Below, piece after piece: positions 54,430 to 63,197 of a DNA stretch of 64,000 nucleotides; the stretch's first letter is position 1; every line of letters begins with the position of its first letter. This stretch comes from Flavobacteria bacterium GWA2_35_26 (GTDB taxonomy: Bacteria; Bacteroidota; Bacteroidia; Flavobacteriales; Flavobacteriaceae), in NCBI GenBank assembly GCA_001800905.1, contig MGWH01000005.1:56303-120302 (forward strand), written 5' to 3'. The notes beneath the pieces were generated by a model, which was given only the letters and a program-made list of their open reading frames with translations, did not search any database and was not told where the DNA came from. A program made the position numbers and the translations under genes.

Positions 54430-54627
54430 ATGACAAAAGTAATGCTTGACTACACCAAATCTATTCTAGAGAGAGTCAGTTTTGATCCTGCACTTTTTTA
54501 CAAAGAATTACAAAAAGCGATTAAAACTTTATTGCCCCATGAAATGGTCCAATTAAAAGAATGGTTATATAGATTTACAAATGAAAAACCAGAACTAAAA
54601 CCCTGTTTGTTAGTTATTAATTCATAA
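54430..54627 (+). CDS. Small conserved hypothetical protein (65 aa)
   Basis: YTKSILERVSFD..LF.KEL.KA..LLP.E...L..W helical pattern; followed by a terminator. Confidence 0.65.
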   Translation: MTKVMLDYTKSILERVSFDPALFYKELQKAIKTLLPHEMVQLKEWLYRFTNEKPELKPCLLVINS

Positions 54628-54658
54628 AAAAAAGGAACCAATTTGGTTCCTTTTTTTT
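54626..54658. terminator. Bidirectional terminator
   Basis: A8-GGAACCAA-t-TTGGTTCC-T8. Confidence 0.85.
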
Positions 54659-55598
54659 ATTTTTTGTTTAATGGGCTAATGATTTCTACATTTTGAAATG
54701 CAATGGCTCCTTTAATTATTCCGGAAATAGTATTCCGTAGCGCGTCGATGATATGAATTTTCAGTTCGCTTTTTGGATAAATTATGCTGACTTCACGAGC
54801 AGGTTTCGGCTCTTTAAAATGGCGTAGTTTATTTTTATCCGATTCATTTAAGTCTAAAGTATGTAAAAAAGGCAATAAGGTGGTACCTAGTCCCTCATTG
54901 GCTAACTTAATCAAAGTTTCAAAACTACCACTTTCTATTTGAAAATGATTGATTTCATTTCTGGTATTATTTCTACATAAATTAAGGATACCATCTCTAA
55001 AACAATGTCCGTCTTGTAGTAATAGAATTTCGTCCAAATTCAAATCGGCAACTTCAATTTCTTTTTTCTGGTAATGTTGATGTCCCTCAGGAATATAGGC
55101 CATAAATGGCTCATAGTAAAGCACAATCTCTTTGATTTTTTCTTCTTGGAGCGGAGTTGCAGCAATCGCCGCATCCAAATGGCCGTTGTTTAATTTTGTA
55201 ATTATTTCAGCAGTATTGAGCTCTTCAATAATCAATTTTACTTTTGGATATTTTTTGATAAAATTTTTCAAAAACATCGGAAGCAAAGTAGGCATAATGG
55301 TAGGGATAATACCTAATCTAAATTCACCACCTATAAATCCTTTTTGTTGTTCAACAATATCTTGAATTCGATCAGCTTCATTAACAATACTTTTAGCTTG
55401 AGTTACAATTTTTTGACCTATATCGGTCAATTGTATGGGTTTTTTGGTGCGATCAAAAATTTGGATATTAAGTTCCTCTTCAATTTTTTGAATTTGCATA
55501 CTCAAAGTAGGTTGAGTTACAAAACATTTGTCTGCAGCTAGCGTAAAATTTTTGTATTCAGCTACTGCAAGTACATATTTAAGTTGAGTAATAGTCAT
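54657..55598 (-). CDS. oxyR: Hydrogen peroxide-inducible genes activator OxyR (LysR family)
   Basis: LysR HTH, GIIPTIMPTLLP, redox pair GHCFRDGILNLC (C199/C208 equivalents), SFETL. Confidence 0.93.
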   Translation of the reverse strand: MTITQLKYVLAVAEYKNFTLAADKCFVTQPTLSMQIQKIEEELNIQIFDRTKKPIQLTDIGQKIVTQAKSIVNEADRIQDIVEQQKGFIGGEFRLGIIPTIMPTLLPMFLKNFIKKYPKVKLIIEELNTAEIITKLNNGHLDAAIAATPLQEEKIKEIVLYYEPFMAYIPEGHQHYQKKEIEVADLNLDEILLLQDGHCFRDGILNLCRNNTRNEINHFQIESGSFETLIKLANEGLGTTLLPFLHTLDLNESDKNKLRHFKEPKPAREVSIIYPKSELKIHIIDALRNTISGIIKGAIAFQNVEIISPLNKK

Positions 55599-55724: not shown

Positions 55725-56690
55725 CTACGATGTGCAATTAATTATTGATAAATATATTGGCATGCCAATGGTTATATTCACTGGAAATGTTATGGCTAAA
55801 GCCATAGGTAAGTAAAGTCCAGGATTTGCTTTTGGAACTGTAATTTTCATTGTAGCTGGAACTGCTATATATGATGCACTTGCGGCTAATACTGAAAAAA
55901 TAAATCGGTTTGAAATATCATCGGTTACAACGGAACTTAATATTGCAAATAAACACCCATTTACAATTGGGATTGCCACTGCAAAAACTAATGGAAACCA
56001 TCCACTGCTAAAGAAGGATTTTAATTTTTTCCCACTCGTGATTCCCATATCTAATAAAAATATTGCAAGAAAGCCTTTGAATAAATCATTTGTGAACGGC
56101 TTTATTCCTTGAGCTTGTTCTGCATTAGCTAGATAGCCAATAACTAAACTTCCAAGGATAAGCAGAACGCTACCATTCGTTAGCGAATGTTTTACAATAG
56201 ATTTTTTTTGGAATTTAGTATTATCTCCTTTGTAAAAAATCGAAATAAGCATTAATCCAATAATTATGGAAGGCGATTCCATTATTGCCATAACTGCAAC
56301 CATATGCCCGTGTAATTGCAACTGATGCGCCTCTAAATAAGATACTGCGGTAACAAATGTAACGGCACTTACAGATCCATATGCTGCTGCAATAGCCCCT
56401 GAATCAAAGAGGTTTAATTTTCTTTTCAGAATAAAAAAGGTATATACTGGAATTATTGCCGAAATACCAATACCAAATAATAAAGACCATATAATTTCAG
56501 TTGAAAAGGTTTCGTGGGATAATTCTTGCCCCCCCTTAAAACCGATGGCAAATAAAAGATATAAGGAGATAAATTTTGAGGAATTTTCAGGAATTTCTAA
56601 ATCACTTTTCAAATACACTGCAATGATTCCAAGTACGAAAAAGAGAAGAGCTGGATTTGTTAAGTTTTCAATGAGCAAGTTTACATTCAT
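55725..56690 (-). CDS. sbtA: SbtA-family sodium-dependent bicarbonate permease
   Basis: LFFVLG...KSDLEIP, LYLLFAIGFKGG, AAAYGSVSAVTF, ESPSII, LLILGSL, FLLDMG, AASASYIAVPA, ITFPVNI.IGMP. Confidence 0.88.
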   Translation of the reverse strand: MNVNLLIENLTNPALLFFVLGIIAVYLKSDLEIPENSSKFISLYLLFAIGFKGGQELSHETFSTEIIWSLLFGIGISAIIPVYTFFILKRKLNLFDSGAIAAAYGSVSAVTFVTAVSYLEAHQLQLHGHMVAVMAIMESPSIIIGLMLISIFYKGDNTKFQKKSIVKHSLTNGSVLLILGSLVIGYLANAEQAQGIKPFTNDLFKGFLAIFLLDMGITSGKKLKSFFSSGWFPLVFAVAIPIVNGCLFAILSSVVTDDISNRFIFSVLAASASYIAVPATMKITVPKANPGLYLPMALAITFPVNITIGMPIYLSIINCTS

Positions 56691-56718: not shown

Positions 56719-58071
56719 TTATCGAATTTTTGAGAATTGTAGTCTCATTCCTTTTGGGGAATAATCAAATACTCCGTTAGTATATACTATATTTCCGTTT
56801 ACAATAGTTGTCATAATTTTACTTTGGAAAACTTGTTCTTCAAAAGGAGACCATTTGCATTTATATAAAATATTTTCTTTTGTCACTTTCCATGATTGGT
56901 TTATATCAACTAATACTAAATCAGCATAATAACCTTCTCTTATATAACCGCGCTCTTTTAGCTTATAAATTTCAGCAACATAATGAGCCGTTTTTTCAAC
57001 AATCATTTCTAATGTCAATTTATTTTGATGATACATTTCTAGCAATGCAGGAAGAGCATGCTGTACTAATGGACCTCCGGACATGGCTTGAAAATAGGTT
57101 CCTGTTTTTTCTTCTATGGTATGGGGAGCATGATCTGTAGCAATTATGTCTAATTTTCCGCTATGTAATGCATCAAATAAACCCTTTTGATTCATTTCTG
57201 ATTTGATTGCAGGATTCCATTTTATTTTGGCTCCTAATTTTTTGTAATCTTGGTCTGAAAACCACAAATGATGAACGCAGGCCTCGGCAGTAATTCGTTT
57301 TTTATGTAAAGGTGTTTTGCAATCAAATAATTCGGTTTCAGCTAGAGTTGAAATATGAAATAAATGCAATCTATTTCCGTATTTTTTTGCAATATCAATT
57401 AATTCTTTCGTGGTGGAGTAACATGCTTCTTCGTTTCGTATTATGGGGTGGTATTCAAAAGGAATATCTGAATTGAATTGAAGTTGTAACGTTTCAGTAT
57501 TCTTCTTGATAATAGCATCGTTTTCGCTATGTAACGCTATTAAAGTATTGGAATTGGCAAATATTTTTTCGATATATTCTGGGTAATTGGCTATAATCCC
57601 ATCCTCTTTAGAAAAATACAATCCGTCATCTGTAACCCCACAAACATTTTCCGTATCTGTTTTTAAAGTTTCCTCCCAATTATCTTTGGTAAGCCCCATA
57701 AAAAAAGAATAATTGGCTAATGATTTTTCATCTGCTAACGAATATTTTTGTTCAAGTAATTCATTAGTAAGTGTATTAGGTAACGTATTTGGCATGTCCA
57801 TAAATGAGGTAATACCTCCAGCAACAGCTGCTATAGATTCGGTGAATAGGTCAGCTTTGTGGGTAAGTCCGGGTTCTCTAAAATGAACTTGATCGTCAAT
57901 AAATCCGGGAAGTAGGTATAAGCCTTCTGCATTAATTTCATTGCAAACAAGTTCTTTGTGTATCGCAATTGAATGATCAATTTTCTCGATTCGATTTTTG
58001 TTAATTAAGACATCTTTGGTAACAATTCTCCCTTCGTTAACAATCTGTGCATTTCGTATTATTAGTCTCAT
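56719..58071 (-). CDS. pyrC: Dihydroorotase (Bacteroidota long-type scaffold) with a TDDG motif at the usual carbamylated-Lys position
   Basis: IDDQVHFREPG, DMPNT, HLFHIST, EACVHHL, IKWNP, IATDHAPH, SGGPLVQH, WSPFE; residues 143-150 read VCGVTDDG. Confidence 0.85.
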   Translation of the reverse strand: MRLIIRNAQIVNEGRIVTKDVLINKNRIEKIDHSIAIHKELVCNEINAEGLYLLPGFIDDQVHFREPGLTHKADLFTESIAAVAGGITSFMDMPNTLPNTLTNELLEQKYSLADEKSLANYSFFMGLTKDNWEETLKTDTENVCGVTDDGLYFSKEDGIIANYPEYIEKIFANSNTLIALHSENDAIIKKNTETLQLQFNSDIPFEYHPIIRNEEACYSTTKELIDIAKKYGNRLHLFHISTLAETELFDCKTPLHKKRITAEACVHHLWFSDQDYKKLGAKIKWNPAIKSEMNQKGLFDALHSGKLDIIATDHAPHTIEEKTGTYFQAMSGGPLVQHALPALLEMYHQNKLTLEMIVEKTAHYVAEIYKLKERGYIREGYYADLVLVDINQSWKVTKENILYKCKWSPFEEQVFQSKIMTTIVNGNIVYTNGVFDYSPKGMRLQFSKIR

Positions 58072-59030
58072 AATTCAGCTACTGCTCTGTTTAATCTATC
58101 GTTTATAGATTTTCCTAGATTAATATTGGGTAATTTTTCAATTAAGAGTACGTCTAGACCTAGAGCATCCAATTCATGTAAATAAGAATATAAATTTTTT
58201 GAAGCTTCCTTAAAATCTCCTGTTGGAGATAAAATGTACTGTACAATTGGCTTAGTTGTATTTACCTTATTTTGAAATTGAAGTACCCCAATTTTTTCAG
58301 ATGAGATAGACTCTAATTCTTTTTCAATATCCTCAACTAGAAAAGATTTTGTTTTTGGAGCATAATGTTTAGTAAACATTCCAGGCGCACTTGGGGCAAT
58401 AGAATCTTTATTGTGGACCTTTATTGGGCCTACAATTTTTTCAATTTCTTCGATCGGAATAGCACCATATCTATAAAGTACAGGTAGTTCTCCTTCAAAT
58501 CCGATAATGGTTGATTCAATTCCATTTTGACAATTTCCTCCATCTAAAACAACGTCTATATCATTCTTAAAATAGTCAAAAACATGTTGCGCATTTGTTG
58601 GGCTAATTGACCCAAAAGGATTGGCGCTTGGTGCAGCTAAGGGGAAGTTTAAATGATGTAATAGCTTCAAAGTCAAAGGATGATTAGGAACTCTAACAGC
58701 AACAGTATTCTTTCCTGAAGTTACCCAATCGGAAATACAATCTTGTTTTTTTAGTACTAAGGTTAATGCACCTGGCCAAAATTGAGCCGCTAATTGAGTT
58801 GCTAAATGAGGTATTTCTTTGGCGACTTCTTTCAGTTGTTCAGTTGACTTAAGATGAACGATTAGCGGATTATTATTGGGTCTTTTTTTTATTTCGAATA
58901 TTTTCTTAACTGCGGATTCGTTATAAATATTGGCAGCCAAGCCATAAACTGTTTCAGTTGGAATTGCAACTACCTTGCCTTCATTTAGGGTATGGATTGC
59001 GAAAGAAATATCTTTAGTTATTACTGTCAT
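58068..59030 (-). CDS. sua5: Sua5-type L-threonylcarbamoyladenylate synthase (YrdC domain + Sua5 domain)
   Basis: PTETVYGL, KKRP..NPLIVH, FWPGALT, AVRVP.HP, LAAPSAN, GIESTII, linker APGM..KHYAP, C-terminal LYSYLHELD...INDRLNRA. Confidence 0.92.
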   Translation of the reverse strand: MTVITKDISFAIHTLNEGKVVAIPTETVYGLAANIYNESAVKKIFEIKKRPNNNPLIVHLKSTEQLKEVAKEIPHLATQLAAQFWPGALTLVLKKQDCISDWVTSGKNTVAVRVPNHPLTLKLLHHLNFPLAAPSANPFGSISPTNAQHVFDYFKNDIDVVLDGGNCQNGIESTIIGFEGELPVLYRYGAIPIEEIEKIVGPIKVHNKDSIAPSAPGMFTKHYAPKTKSFLVEDIEKELESISSEKIGVLQFQNKVNTTKPIVQYILSPTGDFKEASKNLYSYLHELDALGLDVLLIEKLPNINLGKSINDRLNRAVAEL

Positions 59031-59036
59031 AATTAA

Positions 59037-59873
59037 TTAAGGATTACAATAGTCGCAGTACATTGGATCTTCATACTTTTTAGTGTTAGGAAACATTTTA
59101 GTCTCTTGATGTAAACATTTTTTGCATTGATAATTAACGCTTAAAGCTGATTGTGTAGGGGAGTTGCATAAATTACATGGTAATCCTCGAGTCACTTCTT
59201 TAATTTCAAAGCCCGGGGTATCGCATCTGGGACATTTGGTATTCATCTTTTCAACTAATTTATGAGCGGTTTTTTCAATAACTTTCATTCTAGTTGGATT
59301 GAAACAAGCTCTCATATCGGTTTCAACAAATACTTTTCCGAACATTTTTTGGATTTGGTTGAATTGAATAAGTAGTTCTTTTTCATTCGTAATCCCTTTA
59401 TAACATATAGAAAAATTACTGTCATCTGATTTAAGAATTAATCCGTGGGAAGGGAATTGAATATTGGATGAAAATTCTAATAGGTCTTGTTCTGTAGCGA
59501 CATATGTTCCATTAAAATTTGTCGAAGTGCTTAATTCAGTGGCGATTATTTCTAAATTGTTTTTAATATCCAATAGCATTAAATGTTCTTCATCTGCAGG
59601 TAGAAAAAATACGGATGGATGTGCTCCAAAGGATCCCTCACTGGCAATCACTAAATCGCATTTGTAATGGTCTACTGCTGATAAGCATTTTTGGCGAAGC
59701 GTGGAGATTACATCCTTCTTTCTTTCAATTTCTCCGCTAAATGTGCCTAATGTATCGGTATTAAATAGTTGGTTTACTATGCATGTAACACCAAATTCTT
59801 TTTCAAATATTGGAGCTATTATTTTTTCTTTTCCGTGTTGAGTAGCTATCAGTAAATTTCTTCCTTCAAACAT
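59037..59873 (-). CDS. DUF6671-like protein: ITPase-like N-terminus plus four CxxC motifs
   Basis: ATQHGKE, NTDTLGTFSGEIER, IASEGSFGAHP, ETDMRA..NPTRM, then CPRC, CNLC, CKKC, CDYC. Confidence 0.7.
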   Translation of the reverse strand: MFEGRNLLIATQHGKEKIIAPIFEKEFGVTCIVNQLFNTDTLGTFSGEIERKKDVISTLRQKCLSAVDHYKCDLVIASEGSFGAHPSVFFLPADEEHLMLLDIKNNLEIIATELSTSTNFNGTYVATEQDLLEFSSNIQFPSHGLILKSDDSNFSICYKGITNEKELLIQFNQIQKMFGKVFVETDMRACFNPTRMKVIEKTAHKLVEKMNTKCPRCDTPGFEIKEVTRGLPCNLCNSPTQSALSVNYQCKKCLHQETKMFPNTKKYEDPMYCDYCNP

Positions 59874-60151
59874 TATTTATTTACTGAAATTTTAATCATA
59901 CATTCAATTTCCAATGTATGCTTTTCTTTTTCCGCTAGATGAATCACTTCTTCAATTAAACCCTTCATTTTATTCAGTTCTTCAATCCTTTTTTTGGAAT
60001 GATTAGCATCTTTATTGAAGCGAATTTGACTGCTAAAATCCTCTAAACTATGAAAACTAATCTTGTTGTTAATTAATGAGTTAAGAAGAGTTTTTGCTTC
60101 ATTTGGATCAAAAATACCTTCTATTAATTTGTGTTGTGATTCGTTTTTCAT
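59873..60151 (-). CDS. Conserved hypothetical protein (92 aa, soluble, coiled-coil)
   Basis: LIEGIF.P.EA..LL..LI..KI.FH ... S.KRIEEL; its stop overlaps the next start (TAATG). Confidence 0.7.
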   Translation of the reverse strand: MKNESQHKLIEGIFDPNEAKTLLNSLINNKISFHSLEDFSSQIRFNKDANHSKKRIEELNKMKGLIEEVIHLAEKEKHTLEIECMIKISVNK

Positions 60152-60153
60152 GA

Positions 60154-60360
60154 TTATAATTTGACTTTAGTTATTTTTAATAAATAAGTTGATACAAACA
60201 ATGATACTCCAAGAATTATAGTAGACAAGAATGAAAATTCGGATAGAATATTAAATACCATTGCTACTGACAATAAAATAATTATTGTTTTGTAAATCGT
60301 ATTTTGTGATTTACAGAACATTTTAATTTTGCTTTTCAAAAGGAATCGTATCTTTTGCAT
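60154..60360 (-). CDS. Small membrane protein (68 aa, two TM)
   Basis: Basic N-terminus and two hydrophobic helices; 2 bp from the next gene; TAAATTTG -7 element at 60380-60387. Confidence 0.55.
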   Translation of the reverse strand: MQKIRFLLKSKIKMFCKSQNTIYKTIIILLSVAMVFNILSEFSFLSTIILGVSLFVSTYLLKITKVKL

Positions 60361-60379: not shown

Positions 60380-60414
60380 CAAATTTAATAATCATATATT
60401 TTTATTTATATTTG
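60380..60414. promoter_or_regulatory. Back-to-back -7 elements of the divergent operon and lysR promoters
   Basis: Minus-strand TAAATTTG (60380-60387) and plus-strand TATATTTG (60407-60414) in a 78-bp gap. Confidence 0.6.
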
Positions 60415-60438: not shown

Positions 60439-61362
60439 ATGAATTATACATTTCATCAATTAAAAGTTTTTTTGAAAGTTTCTCAAACAAAAAGTATTAC
60501 TAAGGCTGCTAATGAGCTACATCTTACACAGCCAGCAGTATCAATACAATTAAAAAATTTTCAAGATCAATTTGAAATCCCACTTACAGAAGTAATAGGG
60601 AGGCAATTGTATGTTACTGATTTCGGAAAAGAAATTGCATCAACTGCCGAACAAATTTTAAGTGAAGTTGAAAAAATCAATTTTAAAACACTTGCCTACA
60701 AAGGAATATTATCAGGGGTGTTAAAAGTATCTGTTGTATCGACAGGGAAATATGTGATGCCTTATTTTTTGAGTGATTTTCTAAATTCAAACAATGGTAT
60801 TGAGCTTGATATGGATGTTACCAATAAATCAAAAGTGATTAAAGCTTTAAGAAATAATGAAGTTGATTTTGCATTAGTTTCTAATCTTCCTGGAGAAATC
60901 AATGTTGAATCTGAAACATTAATGCAAAATAAATTGTTTTTGGTAAGTAATAAACAGTATTTGAATGATTCAAAATTATCAAGTAATGATGCTTTAATTG
61001 ATGTTCCTTTGATTTATAGAGAAGAAGGTTCTGCTACAAGATTACATATGGAAAATTATTTTTCAAAAAAAGGATATATCATTAAAAGCAAACTGCAATT
61101 AACTTCTAATGAAGCAGTTAAACAGGCAGTAATATCAGGAATTGGTCTATCAATCATGCCGTTAATTGGTTTGAAAAACGAATTGGAAAAGGGGGATTTA
61201 AAGATTATTCCTGCCAAAGGATTACCCATTGTGACCAATTGGAAATTAGTGTGGTTAAAAGGCAAGAAAATGAGTCCGGTAGCAGCAGCTTATTTAGAGT
61301 ATATCAGACAACAAAAAACTGTAATTAATGAAAATCAATTTTCATGGATTAATAATTATTAA
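60439..61362 (+). CDS. LysR-family regulator, CbbR/CmpR-like
   Basis: YTFHQLKVF, SITKAANELHLTQPAVSIQLK, STGKYVMP, REEGSATR, SNEAVKQAV.SGIG motifs typical of the CbbR-like effector domain. Confidence 0.8.
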   Translation: MNYTFHQLKVFLKVSQTKSITKAANELHLTQPAVSIQLKNFQDQFEIPLTEVIGRQLYVTDFGKEIASTAEQILSEVEKINFKTLAYKGILSGVLKVSVVSTGKYVMPYFLSDFLNSNNGIELDMDVTNKSKVIKALRNNEVDFALVSNLPGEINVESETLMQNKLFLVSNKQYLNDSKLSSNDALIDVPLIYREEGSATRLHMENYFSKKGYIIKSKLQLTSNEAVKQAVISGIGLSIMPLIGLKNELEKGDLKIIPAKGLPIVTNWKLVWLKGKKMSPVAAAYLEYIRQQKTVINENQFSWINNY

Positions 61363-62555
61363 TCATTTAGATTCTCATTAAATGCTGATGGAAGTAGGGT
61401 AGGAATAAACTTGATCAATATGGGTAACAACAAACTTCCTCCAGGCAATAAAAATATGGTTAATGATGGGATAGTTTTACAAATATCAAGTAATTGTTTT
61501 TTTATTTTTTTCTTTTCTTTTTCATCCAAATCCCTGCTTGTTGAATGAGCTAACAATACCATAAGTTCTTTACTTTGAACAATTTCCTTCACTAGGCGTG
61601 TTTTGTTACGTGCAATAAGAGTGACAACACTTTGCGTAGTTTGATCGTAAAAATGTTTAACAGGATTGGAATAATTAAAATAAGGAATTTCCTTTTTATG
61701 TTTGGAAATAAAGAGATTCGTATCGTTGATACTTTGTTTTACAAACTCGTCAGATACAGCAAGAGCTTCGGCCAATTGAAATAAAAAATAGGATTCATTC
61801 GTTTCTAAAACTCCATCGTTCCATAGCGCCATACCAGCAATGTCAATTAGGTAATTCTTTTCTAATTCATTGGTAAAAAAATCCAATTCCAGTGTTTCTA
61901 AACTCAAATTAGAGTTTTTGGAGAATTTACTATAACGTATAGATGCCTCAAAAAGTTTGATTAATAAGTCGTCGTATTGCGATTTATTGGTTTTGATTTT
62001 CAAAGCCAGAGTGACAATATTGACAATCGTTTCTTCTATTTTTTTGAGATATTTTTCCGGGATATTTCCATGCATTAAATATTGGCGAAAGGCCAATACA
62101 TCAATATACAAAAGCGCATTGGTAACTAAATGAGAAAAGTTTTTACTGATGATGTTTTCATTAGTTTGAACTCGTTCGTCAATGAATTTTTCAAGTGTAA
62201 GTGAAGGACTATTCTTTGGGAGTAATTTTTTAAACAAGTTAAATTCTTCTGGATGCATCTCATTATAAAAAGACACCGTTTCGGCAATGAATTCCTCCCA
62301 ATTAAGTTTTTCCTTAGTAACACTATAAACTCCTAAAAGGCTATTCAATAAAGCTACTTTTGACACTTCTTCTTTGAACCAACCAGTAATAGGAATTACC
62401 GATTTTGTATCCAACGAAATGATGTGCCCATAGATAAATCCTGATTTTCTTAATGCTTTATAGAAAGCATCATTTTCAGTGACCAATTCCATCTTTGAAA
62501 TCTGTTGTTCACTGAAAAATTTATCGATCCAACCGGGTACTGAAGGGTTTATCAT
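61359..62555 (-). CDS. LETM1-related protein
   Basis: C-terminal EKKKIKKQLLDICKTIPSLTIFLLPGGSLLLPILIK resembles the LETM1 TM/ribosome-binding segment. Confidence 0.7.
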   Translation of the reverse strand: MINPSVPGWIDKFFSEQQISKMELVTENDAFYKALRKSGFIYGHIISLDTKSVIPITGWFKEEVSKVALLNSLLGVYSVTKEKLNWEEFIAETVSFYNEMHPEEFNLFKKLLPKNSPSLTLEKFIDERVQTNENIISKNFSHLVTNALLYIDVLAFRQYLMHGNIPEKYLKKIEETIVNIVTLALKIKTNKSQYDDLLIKLFEASIRYSKFSKNSNLSLETLELDFFTNELEKNYLIDIAGMALWNDGVLETNESYFLFQLAEALAVSDEFVKQSINDTNLFISKHKKEIPYFNYSNPVKHFYDQTTQSVVTLIARNKTRLVKEIVQSKELMVLLAHSTSRDLDEKEKKKIKKQLLDICKTIPSLTIFLLPGGSLLLPILIKFIPTLLPSAFNENLND

Positions 62556-62672
62556 TAACTTGAATTAAAAGTACAAAGCTAGGTTTTTTTCTGGTTTCAA
62601 AGATGAAATTAAAATTAAAAAACAGTTTTGTAAATGAATACAAAACGGTTTGAATTGCCAAGTAAATAATTG

Positions 62673-63197
62673 TTACTTTATGATTGCTGAGCAGGCTACT
62701 CGAGCTCCAGAATTTCCAGTGGGCTGCGTTACGAAATCATCAGCACCTTGATGCACTATCAATCCTTTTCCTAAAACATCTTTAGCAGGATCTCCACAAC
62801 CTATACACCATTCCTCAGTAGTCAAAGTGATTGTTCCATTTCCATTTTCATCAGCTGTGAAGTTTCCAATATCGCCTTTATGGTATTCTCCTTCTCCCCA
62901 TTTACCGTGTTTTTTAAAGGTAGGATTCCAATGTCCGCCTGCTGAACTTCCATCAGCGGCAGAACAATCTGATTTTTCGTGAATATGAATGGCATGAACA
63001 CCCGGTTTTAGCCCAGTAAGTTTAGCTTCAAAAGTGACTTTTCCTTTTTTCTCTGTAAAGGTTGCAGTTCCTGCAACTGAACTATTACTCTTCGGTTCAA
63101 AATACAGAGCTAGTTTTTTTACATCATTTGAATTGGCAGTTTTACAGCCAATAATAACAGCTACAATAACAAGAATGGATACTACTATTTTTTTCAT
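62673..63197 (-). CDS. sodC: Cu/Zn superoxide dismutase, lipoprotein
   Basis: Lipobox IIGC; HAIHIH, GGHWNP, HGKWG, HKGDIGN, IVHQ..DD, SGARVAC (all metal ligands and the catalytic Arg present). Confidence 0.93.
   Translation of the reverse strand: MKKIVVSILVIVAVIIGCKTANSNDVKKLALYFEPKSNSSVAGTATFTEKKGKVTFEAKLTGLKPGVHAIHIHEKSDCSAADGSSAGGHWNPTFKKHGKWGEGEYHKGDIGNFTADENGNGTITLTTEEWCIGCGDPAKDVLGKGLIVHQGADDFVTQPTGNSGARVACSAIIK

Follow-up and report, generated by a model that had tools for sequence, protein, structure and literature searches.

A Sua5-type threonylcarbamoyl-AMP synthase as an accessory gene of a modular Sbt permease cassette in Bacteroidota

We analyzed a stretch of 64,000 nucleotides from a freshwater Flavobacterium listed as Flavobacteria bacterium GWA2_35_26 (contig MGWH01000005.1, positions 56,303 to 120,302 of the forward strand), here called the window, to whose first letter all coordinates refer unless another locus is named. 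The gene in question, at 58068..59030 on the minus strand with an ATG start, encodes a 320-amino-acid Sua5/TsaC2-type synthase of L-threonylcarbamoyl-AMP (TC-AMP), the intermediate used to make the universal tRNA modification threonylcarbamoyladenosine (t6A). Results showed that this Sua5 is accessory and belongs to a modular, horizontally shared cassette of Bacteroidota, which also contains a permease of the Sbt_1 family. What is peculiar about it is this genomic context, a spare copy next to a transporter. We propose that the cassette responds to inorganic carbon and that its Sua5 provides TC-AMP for TsaD/TsaB, being induced when carbon is scarce; we give this explanation close to an even chance of being right. 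The comparative evidence for a second isoform and for its tie to the transporter is solid, and the low-CO2 physiology of the cassette is a reasonable hypothesis.

The first-pass annotation, made from the sequence alone, had described intact YrdC motifs, a PGMxxxHY linker and a C-terminal Sua5 domain. All are present, as revealed by reading the DNA, by Pfam and NCBIfam searches and by comparison with structures. Residues 14-189 match PF01300 (Sua5_yciO_yrdC, 6e-62) and residues 191-316 match PF03481 (Sua5_C, 7.5e-25) over profile positions 1-134 of 136, while the NCBIfam model of L-threonylcarbamoyladenylate synthase, TIGR00057, gives 199.7 bits (cut-off 123.2). The protein aligns over its full length with P. 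abyssi Sua5 (Pa-Sua5; 6F87, 2.6e-71, residues 10-316 against 17-331) and with S. tokodaii Sua5 (2EQA, 1.5e-63). Matches of this strength cannot be put down to chance. Both halves of the KRSN tetrad were read from the minus-strand DNA and the structure alignment, K48-K-R50 at 58881..58889 (the KxR half) and S135-A-N137 at 58620..58628 (the SxN half), and the linker motif P216-G-M-F-T-K-H-Y223 was read from the DNA at 58362..58385. P216-G-M218 and H222-Y223 align with P228-G229-M230 and H234-Y235 of Pa-Sua5; R187 is the equivalent of Pa R195, which holds HCO3-, and R312 is the retained equivalent of the interdomain Pa R328. A comparison of 52 Bacteroidota Sua5s (36 linked to the cassette and 16 unlinked) showed no variation in the catalytic and linker residues, nor in R187 and S135, the equivalents of the bicarbonate contacts made in Pa-Sua5 by R195 and the S143 backbone. 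In Pa-Sua5 the PGM and HY motifs are essential, and the tetrad, the Arg and the linker residues are essential or contact the substrate (PMC6004061). Judged by sequence, the window Sua5 would be a canonical TC-AMP synthase under purifying selection, neither degenerate nor obviously re-purposed.

The same two-domain architecture is found in the P. abyssi (6F87) and S. tokodaii (2EQA/4E1B) Sua5s and in B. subtilis YwlC (EC 2.7.7.87 type 2), and the solved Sua5s share with the window protein the KxR/SxN tetrad, the HCO3--contacting Arg, the PGM and HY motifs and the interdomain Arg. On the contrary, the window Sua5 differs from them in being accessory beside a short TsaC, in its transporter cassette setting and in having a His at the position of the Pa R301 "arm", a His that occurs in every Bacteroidota Sua5 compared, linked or unlinked. 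HCO3-/CO2 is a substrate of Sua5, and in the lid model of Pa-Sua5 the linker closes over threonine and HCO3-, excluding solvent and raising the local concentration of both (PMC6004061). The earlier claim that the linker gates the active site agrees with this model as far as Pa-Sua5 is concerned, but its addition that short TsaC differs in this respect is too strong, since E. coli TsaC may also be gated, by a flexible loop at its C-terminus, according to an earlier proposal (cited in PMC6004061).

We also looked for other t6A genes in the 2.1-Mb genome (99.5% complete) and found three genes of the YrdC fold, namely Sua5, a 188-amino-acid TsaC and a 206-amino-acid YciO. The TsaC, whose gene lies 0.4 kb upstream of the window, has an intact tetrad (KKR / SAN), and its best matches are TsaC-like domains. 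The 206-amino-acid protein is a full-length YciO orthologue (E. coli 1K7J, 4.7e-47) with KGV / SIH at the tetrad positions, without the tetrad R and N, in line with a review that calls YciO a non-equivalent paralogue (PMC4615747). YciO is a single domain of ~206 residues without KRSN, and the window Sua5, with two domains and the tetrad, is no such protein. As the genome also holds a tetrad-complete TsaC and a YciO, the window Sua5 is an extra copy; the earlier suggestion of a second isoform was borne out, and Sua5 is not the only t6A synthase of this genome. TsaD and TsaB are encoded once each.

The wider family gives the same picture. In a sample of one Flavobacteriaceae genome per genus (121 genera), the short pair TsaC and YciO occurs alone in ~85% and a long Sua5 in 19. 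Eleven of these 19 genera have only two YrdC genes, and there an unlinked Sua5 stands in for TsaC. On the contrary, TsaC and YciO are both kept in 20 of 22 other genomes with an Sbt-linked Sua5. Because most genomes of the family carry exactly the short pair, we take short TsaC as the housekeeping form; by elimination, the 188-amino-acid TsaC is probably the housekeeping enzyme. Its gene adjoins an open reading frame (ORF) of 472 amino acids resembling a CCA-adding/HD-domain enzyme by sequence (both within L003:48-2064; genome C5:53.9-55.9 kb), a putative tRNA-related neighbourhood unlike the transporter context of Sua5.

A search from the Sbt side gave 80 loci, with Sbt proteins 72-97% identical to the window permease, from Flavobacterium species, among them the cultured carriers F. 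cheniae DSM 22462, F. cucumis DSM 18830, F. sasangense DSM 21067, F. tibetense and F. aquaticum (L072, L095, L088, L070 and L093), and from freshwater metagenome-assembled genomes (MAGs) labelled Chitinophagaceae, Saprospiraceae, Sphingobacteriaceae, Cytophagales and others. Clustering of the neighbouring ORFs revealed only six recurrent partners, in the fixed order LysR<->(IDH)-orf92-DUF6671-Sua5-(PyrC2)-Sbt, where LysR is a divergent regulator, IDH an NADP-isocitrate dehydrogenase, orf92 a conserved 92-amino-acid protein and PyrC2 a dihydroorotase paralogue. The divergent LysR is upstream in ~60 of the 80 loci and served as the mark of completeness, giving 59 complete cassettes. Among these, orf92 is present in 42, DUF6671 in 38, Sua5 and IDH in 27 each and PyrC2 in 10. 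In all 27 cases Sua5 is on the same strand and directly upstream of Sbt or of PyrC2-Sbt, and such cassettes occur in Flavobacteriaceae, Chitinophagaceae, Sphingobacteriaceae, Spirosomataceae and Flectobacillaceae. Family counts rely on record titles and are approximate, with implausible labels in L031, L034, L037, L040, L081 and L094; odd MAG labels include "Chitinophaga pinensis isolate", "uncultured Bifidobacterium sp." and "Candidatus Methylacidiphilales".

Spacing within the cassette is tight. The median junctions are 5.5 bp for DUF6671-Sua5 (3-14 bp in most loci), -4 bp for Sua5-PyrC2 (-4 to +3 bp in 9 related loci) and 22 bp for Sua5-Sbt. In the window, the 4-bp ATGA overlap with the downstream dihydroorotase gene, already pointed out in the first pass, could be read directly in the minus-strand DNA at 58068..58071 (stop TGA 58068-58070, start ATG 58069-58071). 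The intergenic gaps along the window string are 2, -1, 6, -4 and 28 bp, and the stretch from orf92 to Sbt showed no terminator-like site. From spacing and conservation we infer that the string is an operon and that Sua5 is translationally coupled within it.

The link between Sua5 and Sbt, which had been proposed from the window alone, proved conserved and tightly spaced across Bacteroidota. A sample of the same genus comprised 25 genomes: 9 carry Sua5 together with Sbt, always adjacent, 15 carry neither, one has only Sbt, at a contig break, and none has only Sua5, so that long Sua5 appears in this sample only beside Sbt. By a naive Fisher test, worked out by hand, the value is ~5e-6, which relatedness inflates. 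One genome of this sample (G133) has two Sua5-Sbt pairs, on C12 (~425-427 kb) and C23 (~215-217 kb). The per-genus family sample had at first suggested that synteny was not conserved, as only 1 of the 18 other long-Sua5 genera has Sbt nearby. This was a sampling effect, because the Sua5s of those genera form a separate unlinked clade, and it was the search from the Sbt side that revealed the cassette.

Cassette Sua5s are ~50-58% identical to one another. In the Sua5 tree, two or three clades of mixed taxonomic families contain the linked copies, and the unlinked flavobacterial Sua5s form a separate clade; the linked and unlinked labels require 3 changes compared to 14.7 in shuffles, and 0 of 500 shuffles were as low. 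On the Sbt tree, the presence of Sua5 needs at least 9 gains or losses. Therefore, the cassette is modular and moves horizontally. Its GC content in the window is 31.5-33.7%, compared to 35.1% for the genome, with no clear sign of recent import.

The partners of Sua5 point to a common theme. The permease (55725..56690, minus strand, 321 amino acids, 28 bp after PyrC2) is encoded once in the genome and belongs to the Sbt_1 family (PF05982, 7.5e-114). The label "SbtA" given to it earlier holds at the level of the family only: the match to Synechocystis SbtA (7CYE) is remote (2.2e-22) and comes in two halves. The alignment retains the Na+-site segments. Of the HCO3- contacts proposed for SbtA (PMC8352866), a site that is itself a docking model, the equivalents of S114 and S324 are retained, and Y140 and S327 are replaced by Met and Ala. 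The SbtB-binding cytoplasmic loop of SbtA, residues 166-212 (PMC8352866), is missing from the alignment, and no PII-like family (SbtB) is among the recurrent neighbours of the 80 Sbt loci. For marine Flavobacteriia, the literature counts sbtA among the anaplerotic genes of inorganic carbon, on the basis of annotation alone (PMC5932025).

The gene overlapping Sua5 (56719..58071, minus strand, 450 amino acids) had been called pyrC, and it does match the dihydroorotase family (NF006688, 619.8 bits, cut-off 535). Nevertheless, it is not the housekeeping enzyme but the third and divergent one of three dihydroorotase-like genes of the genome, here PyrC2, 51% identical to the canonical type III dihydroorotase encoded on contig C2 (737 bits with the same model). 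At the position of the carbamylated lysine (KCX), PyrC2 has the motif CG[IV]TDDGLYF (~57622-57633) with a 3-residue insertion in place of AGIK---IFLGSSTG, and this motif is kept in 15 of 15 Sbt-linked PyrC2 orthologues. KCX, a CO2-derived zinc bridge, is invariant in type III dihydroorotases and is an Asp in type I (PMC9771888). PyrC2 has lost KCX and combines a type III scaffold with a type I-like TDDG motif.

The divergent LysR-type regulator (60439..61362, plus strand; PF00126 and PF03466) has CbbR as its best model, although the score with NF045990 (181 bits) falls short of the cut-off of 450. Considering the Sbt_1 permease, a PyrC2 without KCX, the CO2-releasing IDH of 27 of the 59 complete cassettes, the CbbR-like regulator and the substrate of Sua5, CO2/HCO3- is the sole visible factor common to the cassette parts, which is why we favor an accessory isoform co-expressed with bicarbonate import. 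Where it occurs, the IDH (NF006673, 786 bits) opens the cassette (L082:1900-3339, L043:5258-6709 and 25 more loci); the window and its genome lack an IDH of the cassette type (best matches at 31% identity).

According to this proposal, the gene string would form one transcript under LysR control, switched on when inorganic carbon becomes scarce. The Sbt permease would then import bicarbonate, and Sua5 would make L-threonylcarbamoyl-AMP from threonine, ATP and HCO3-/CO2 for t6A at position 37 through the single TsaD/TsaB system, its lid-gated active site keeping this first, bicarbonate-dependent step of t6A synthesis going at low inorganic carbon. PyrC2, being free of the lysine carbamate, would keep pyrimidine synthesis independent of CO2. 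The lid model of Pa-Sua5 offers a plausible reason to prefer the long form in such a setting. This proposal widens the first-pass suggestion that the second isoform keeps t6A synthesis going when inorganic carbon is low, a suggestion that the comparative results support in part. A broader version, in which heterotrophic Bacteroidota possess an inorganic-carbon limitation regulon made of a CbbR-like LysR, the importer, a lid-gated TsaC2 that outperforms TsaC when HCO3- is low, PyrC2 and often IDH, is more tentative, and we consider it on balance doubtful.

Several observations weigh against the inorganic-carbon explanation. No residue separates the 36 cassette-linked from the 16 unlinked Sua5s at an 85% threshold, so the sequence gives no pointer to an altered bicarbonate affinity, and in the study of Pa-Sua5 HCO3- was kept unvaried (PMC6004061). 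The genome encodes a beta-carbonic anhydrase. Half of the cassettes are without Sua5, whose presence requires at least 9 gains or losses along the Sbt tree, so the cassette can do without it. The permease is only remotely related to characterized SbtA, with two of four HCO3- contacts and no SbtB partner. Promoter scans did not help: a sigma-70 scan, uninformative for Bacteroidota, gave 43 sites against 38.6 expected, and a scan with the Bacteroidota-style TTTG-N-TAnnTTTG gave 11 against 7.8, equally uninformative. Finally, a back-up role in t6A synthesis leaves the dependence of Sua5 on DUF6671 unexplained.

This dependence leaves room for a rival in which the adenylate serves something besides tRNA. 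The DUF6671 protein (59037..59873, minus strand, 278 amino acids; PF20376, 4.8e-89) is present in 26 of the 27 Sua5 cassettes, and 12 cassettes have DUF6671 without Sua5, which suggests a functional pair; the few bases that mostly separate the two genes fit this idea. When the association of DUF6671 with Sua5 was tested by phylogenetically independent pairs on the Sbt tree, too few pairs were supported. The C-terminus of DUF6671 has four invariant CxxC pairs, forming a double zinc ribbon, and the N-terminal part of its AlphaFold model (predicted local distance difference test score, pLDDT, 93) weakly resembles the nucleotide-binding folds of YjjX, ITPase and HcgB. Short TsaC would in this case make t6A, and cassette Sua5 and DUF6671 would act on a non-tRNA target, for example with a carbamoyl- or N-carboxy-aminoacyl-adenylate being bound, transferred or hydrolysed by DUF6671, and a product that could read out bicarbonate availability or feed a small-molecule pathway. 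HypF and TobZ are precedents, as their YrdC-like domains take part in carbamoylations of targets besides tRNA (PMC6004061), and the HypF model is also among the NCBIfam matches. We nonetheless hold this rival to be unlikely, because all TC-AMP residues and Sua5 linker motifs are invariant with no cassette-specific substitution, the fold matches are weak (E 4e-4, query template modelling score, TM, ~0.3, ~120 of 278 residues aligned) and the cassette genes include no acceptor-modifying (Kae1-like) partner.

Sua5 might also be a redundant passenger, carried on a mobile cassette with no inorganic-carbon logic and either replacing TsaC or being lost, the gene order being conserved because the block descends from a common ancestor and spreads horizontally. 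TsaC and TsaC2 do swap freely, with both in 9% of bacterial genomes for reasons unknown (PMC4615747, PMC10321239); unlinked Sua5 has taken the place of TsaC in ~11 of the 19 long-Sua5 genera, and the many cassettes without Sua5, its repeated gain or loss and a cassette phylogeny crossing taxonomic families all agree with such a fate. However, cassette Sua5s at ~50-58% identity keep their functional residues, their position and their junctions of a few bases, which argues for long purifying selection in place; unlike the unlinked Sua5s, they almost never displace TsaC; and Sbt, PyrC2 and IDH are each independently tied to CO2/HCO3-. A mere passenger is for these reasons rather unlikely, though with a real minority chance. 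By comparison, we regard as quite improbable that the Bacteroidota Sbt_1 permease carries a solute other than bicarbonate. The remote SbtA match (E 2.2e-22), the two changed contacts, the missing SbtB-binding loop and SbtB gene (PMC8352866) and a literature search that returned no transport data on members from Bacteroidota are compatible with another solute, but the Na+-site segments and the S114 and S324 equivalents are kept, CO2/HCO3- is the only obvious factor common to the accompanying genes, the best model of the regulator is CbbR, and the annotation-based use of sbtA as an inorganic-carbon gene in the flavobacterial literature (PMC5932025) points the same way.

The inorganic-carbon explanation can be compared with several known systems. 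In cyanobacteria, the low-CO2 regulon (sbtA-sbtB, cmp, ndh-I3; NdhR(CcmR)/CmpR) likewise places a LysR regulator, in the cassette a putative one of the CbbR branch, beside a gene of the Sbt family, but the present host is a heterotroph without SbtB, carboxysome or Rubisco context, the cassette carries the isozymes Sua5 and PyrC2 and IDH, and the regulator scores below the CbbR cut-off. Nutrient-sparing back-up isozymes are known from metal-sparing regulons, such as the zinc-free paralogues regulated by Zur. In such regulons, genes for uptake stand together with paralogues of housekeeping enzymes that need the scarce nutrient, and PyrC2, which drops the CO2-derived lysine carbamate, would fit this scheme. 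Sua5 differs from isozymes of the Zur type, as bicarbonate is its indispensable substrate and only kinetics or local supply could bring an advantage.

Genomes with both TsaC and TsaC2, such as that of Vibrio cholerae (VC0054 and VC1079), also have two predicted-competent synthases and a YciO (PMC4615747, PMC10321239); compared to these, the second copy described here has a fixed genomic partner, the Sbt cassette, which is its sole setting in the genus sample. A 2015 review of 9176 bacterial genomes found TsaC in 73%, TsaC2 in 31% and both in 9%, with no phylogenetic or lifestyle pattern and with functional differences that were not understood (PMC4615747). In a 2023 study, species with both forms were few, and having the two together was argued to bring no advantage (PMC10321239). 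Our literature searches returned no work that connects Sua5 with Sbt transporters, no mention of DUF6671 and no transcriptome of a cassette carrier; the window Sua5 is a new member of a known family whose fixed tie to an inorganic-carbon cassette appears to be undescribed. The fixed Sbt and CbbR-like partner makes it experimentally tractable to ask why the universal enzyme of the first t6A step comes in two forms. If the regulon exists as proposed, it would provide the first physiological distinction between TsaC and TsaC2, and tRNA modification would be a CO2-sensitive process that cells actively protect. Moreover, as most cassette loci come from freshwater, it may be relevant to the way in which heterotrophs obtain bicarbonate for biosynthesis in productive lakes of high pH that are depleted of CO2.

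The remaining features of the locus lie at the two ends of the gene string. Upstream of DUF6671, orf92 (59873..60151, minus strand), the commonest accessory gene of the cassette and usually its first or second gene, has no Pfam or NCBIfam match; it usually overlaps the start of DUF6671 by 1-41 bp. The string is headed by a hydrophobic ORF of 68 amino acids (60154..60360, minus strand) restricted to the closest relatives, with tblastn matches only in L028 and L030. Ahead of this first ORF a single TAAATTTG element was seen by eye at 60380-60387 on the minus strand.

At the other end, an OxyR-like LysR gene (54657..55598, minus strand; NF008361 OxyR, 222 bits, below the cut-off) lies 126 bp downstream of Sbt, outside the conserved cassette, and adjoins Sbt only in L027, L028 and L030. 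The first terminator-like site downstream of the string is a strong hairpin with a T-run at 54624..54660; its 17-bp stem is flanked by A-runs and T-runs and sits between the convergent MnmC2 and OxyR-like genes, so that it looks like a bidirectional terminator. Beyond the divergent regulator, the region 61359-63197 holds a LETM1-related biofilm-associated protein (NF040639, 524 bits) and an ORF resembling, by sequence, a lipoprotein-type Cu/Zn superoxide dismutase, a context around the regulator that is common only to the closest relatives, L028 and L030.

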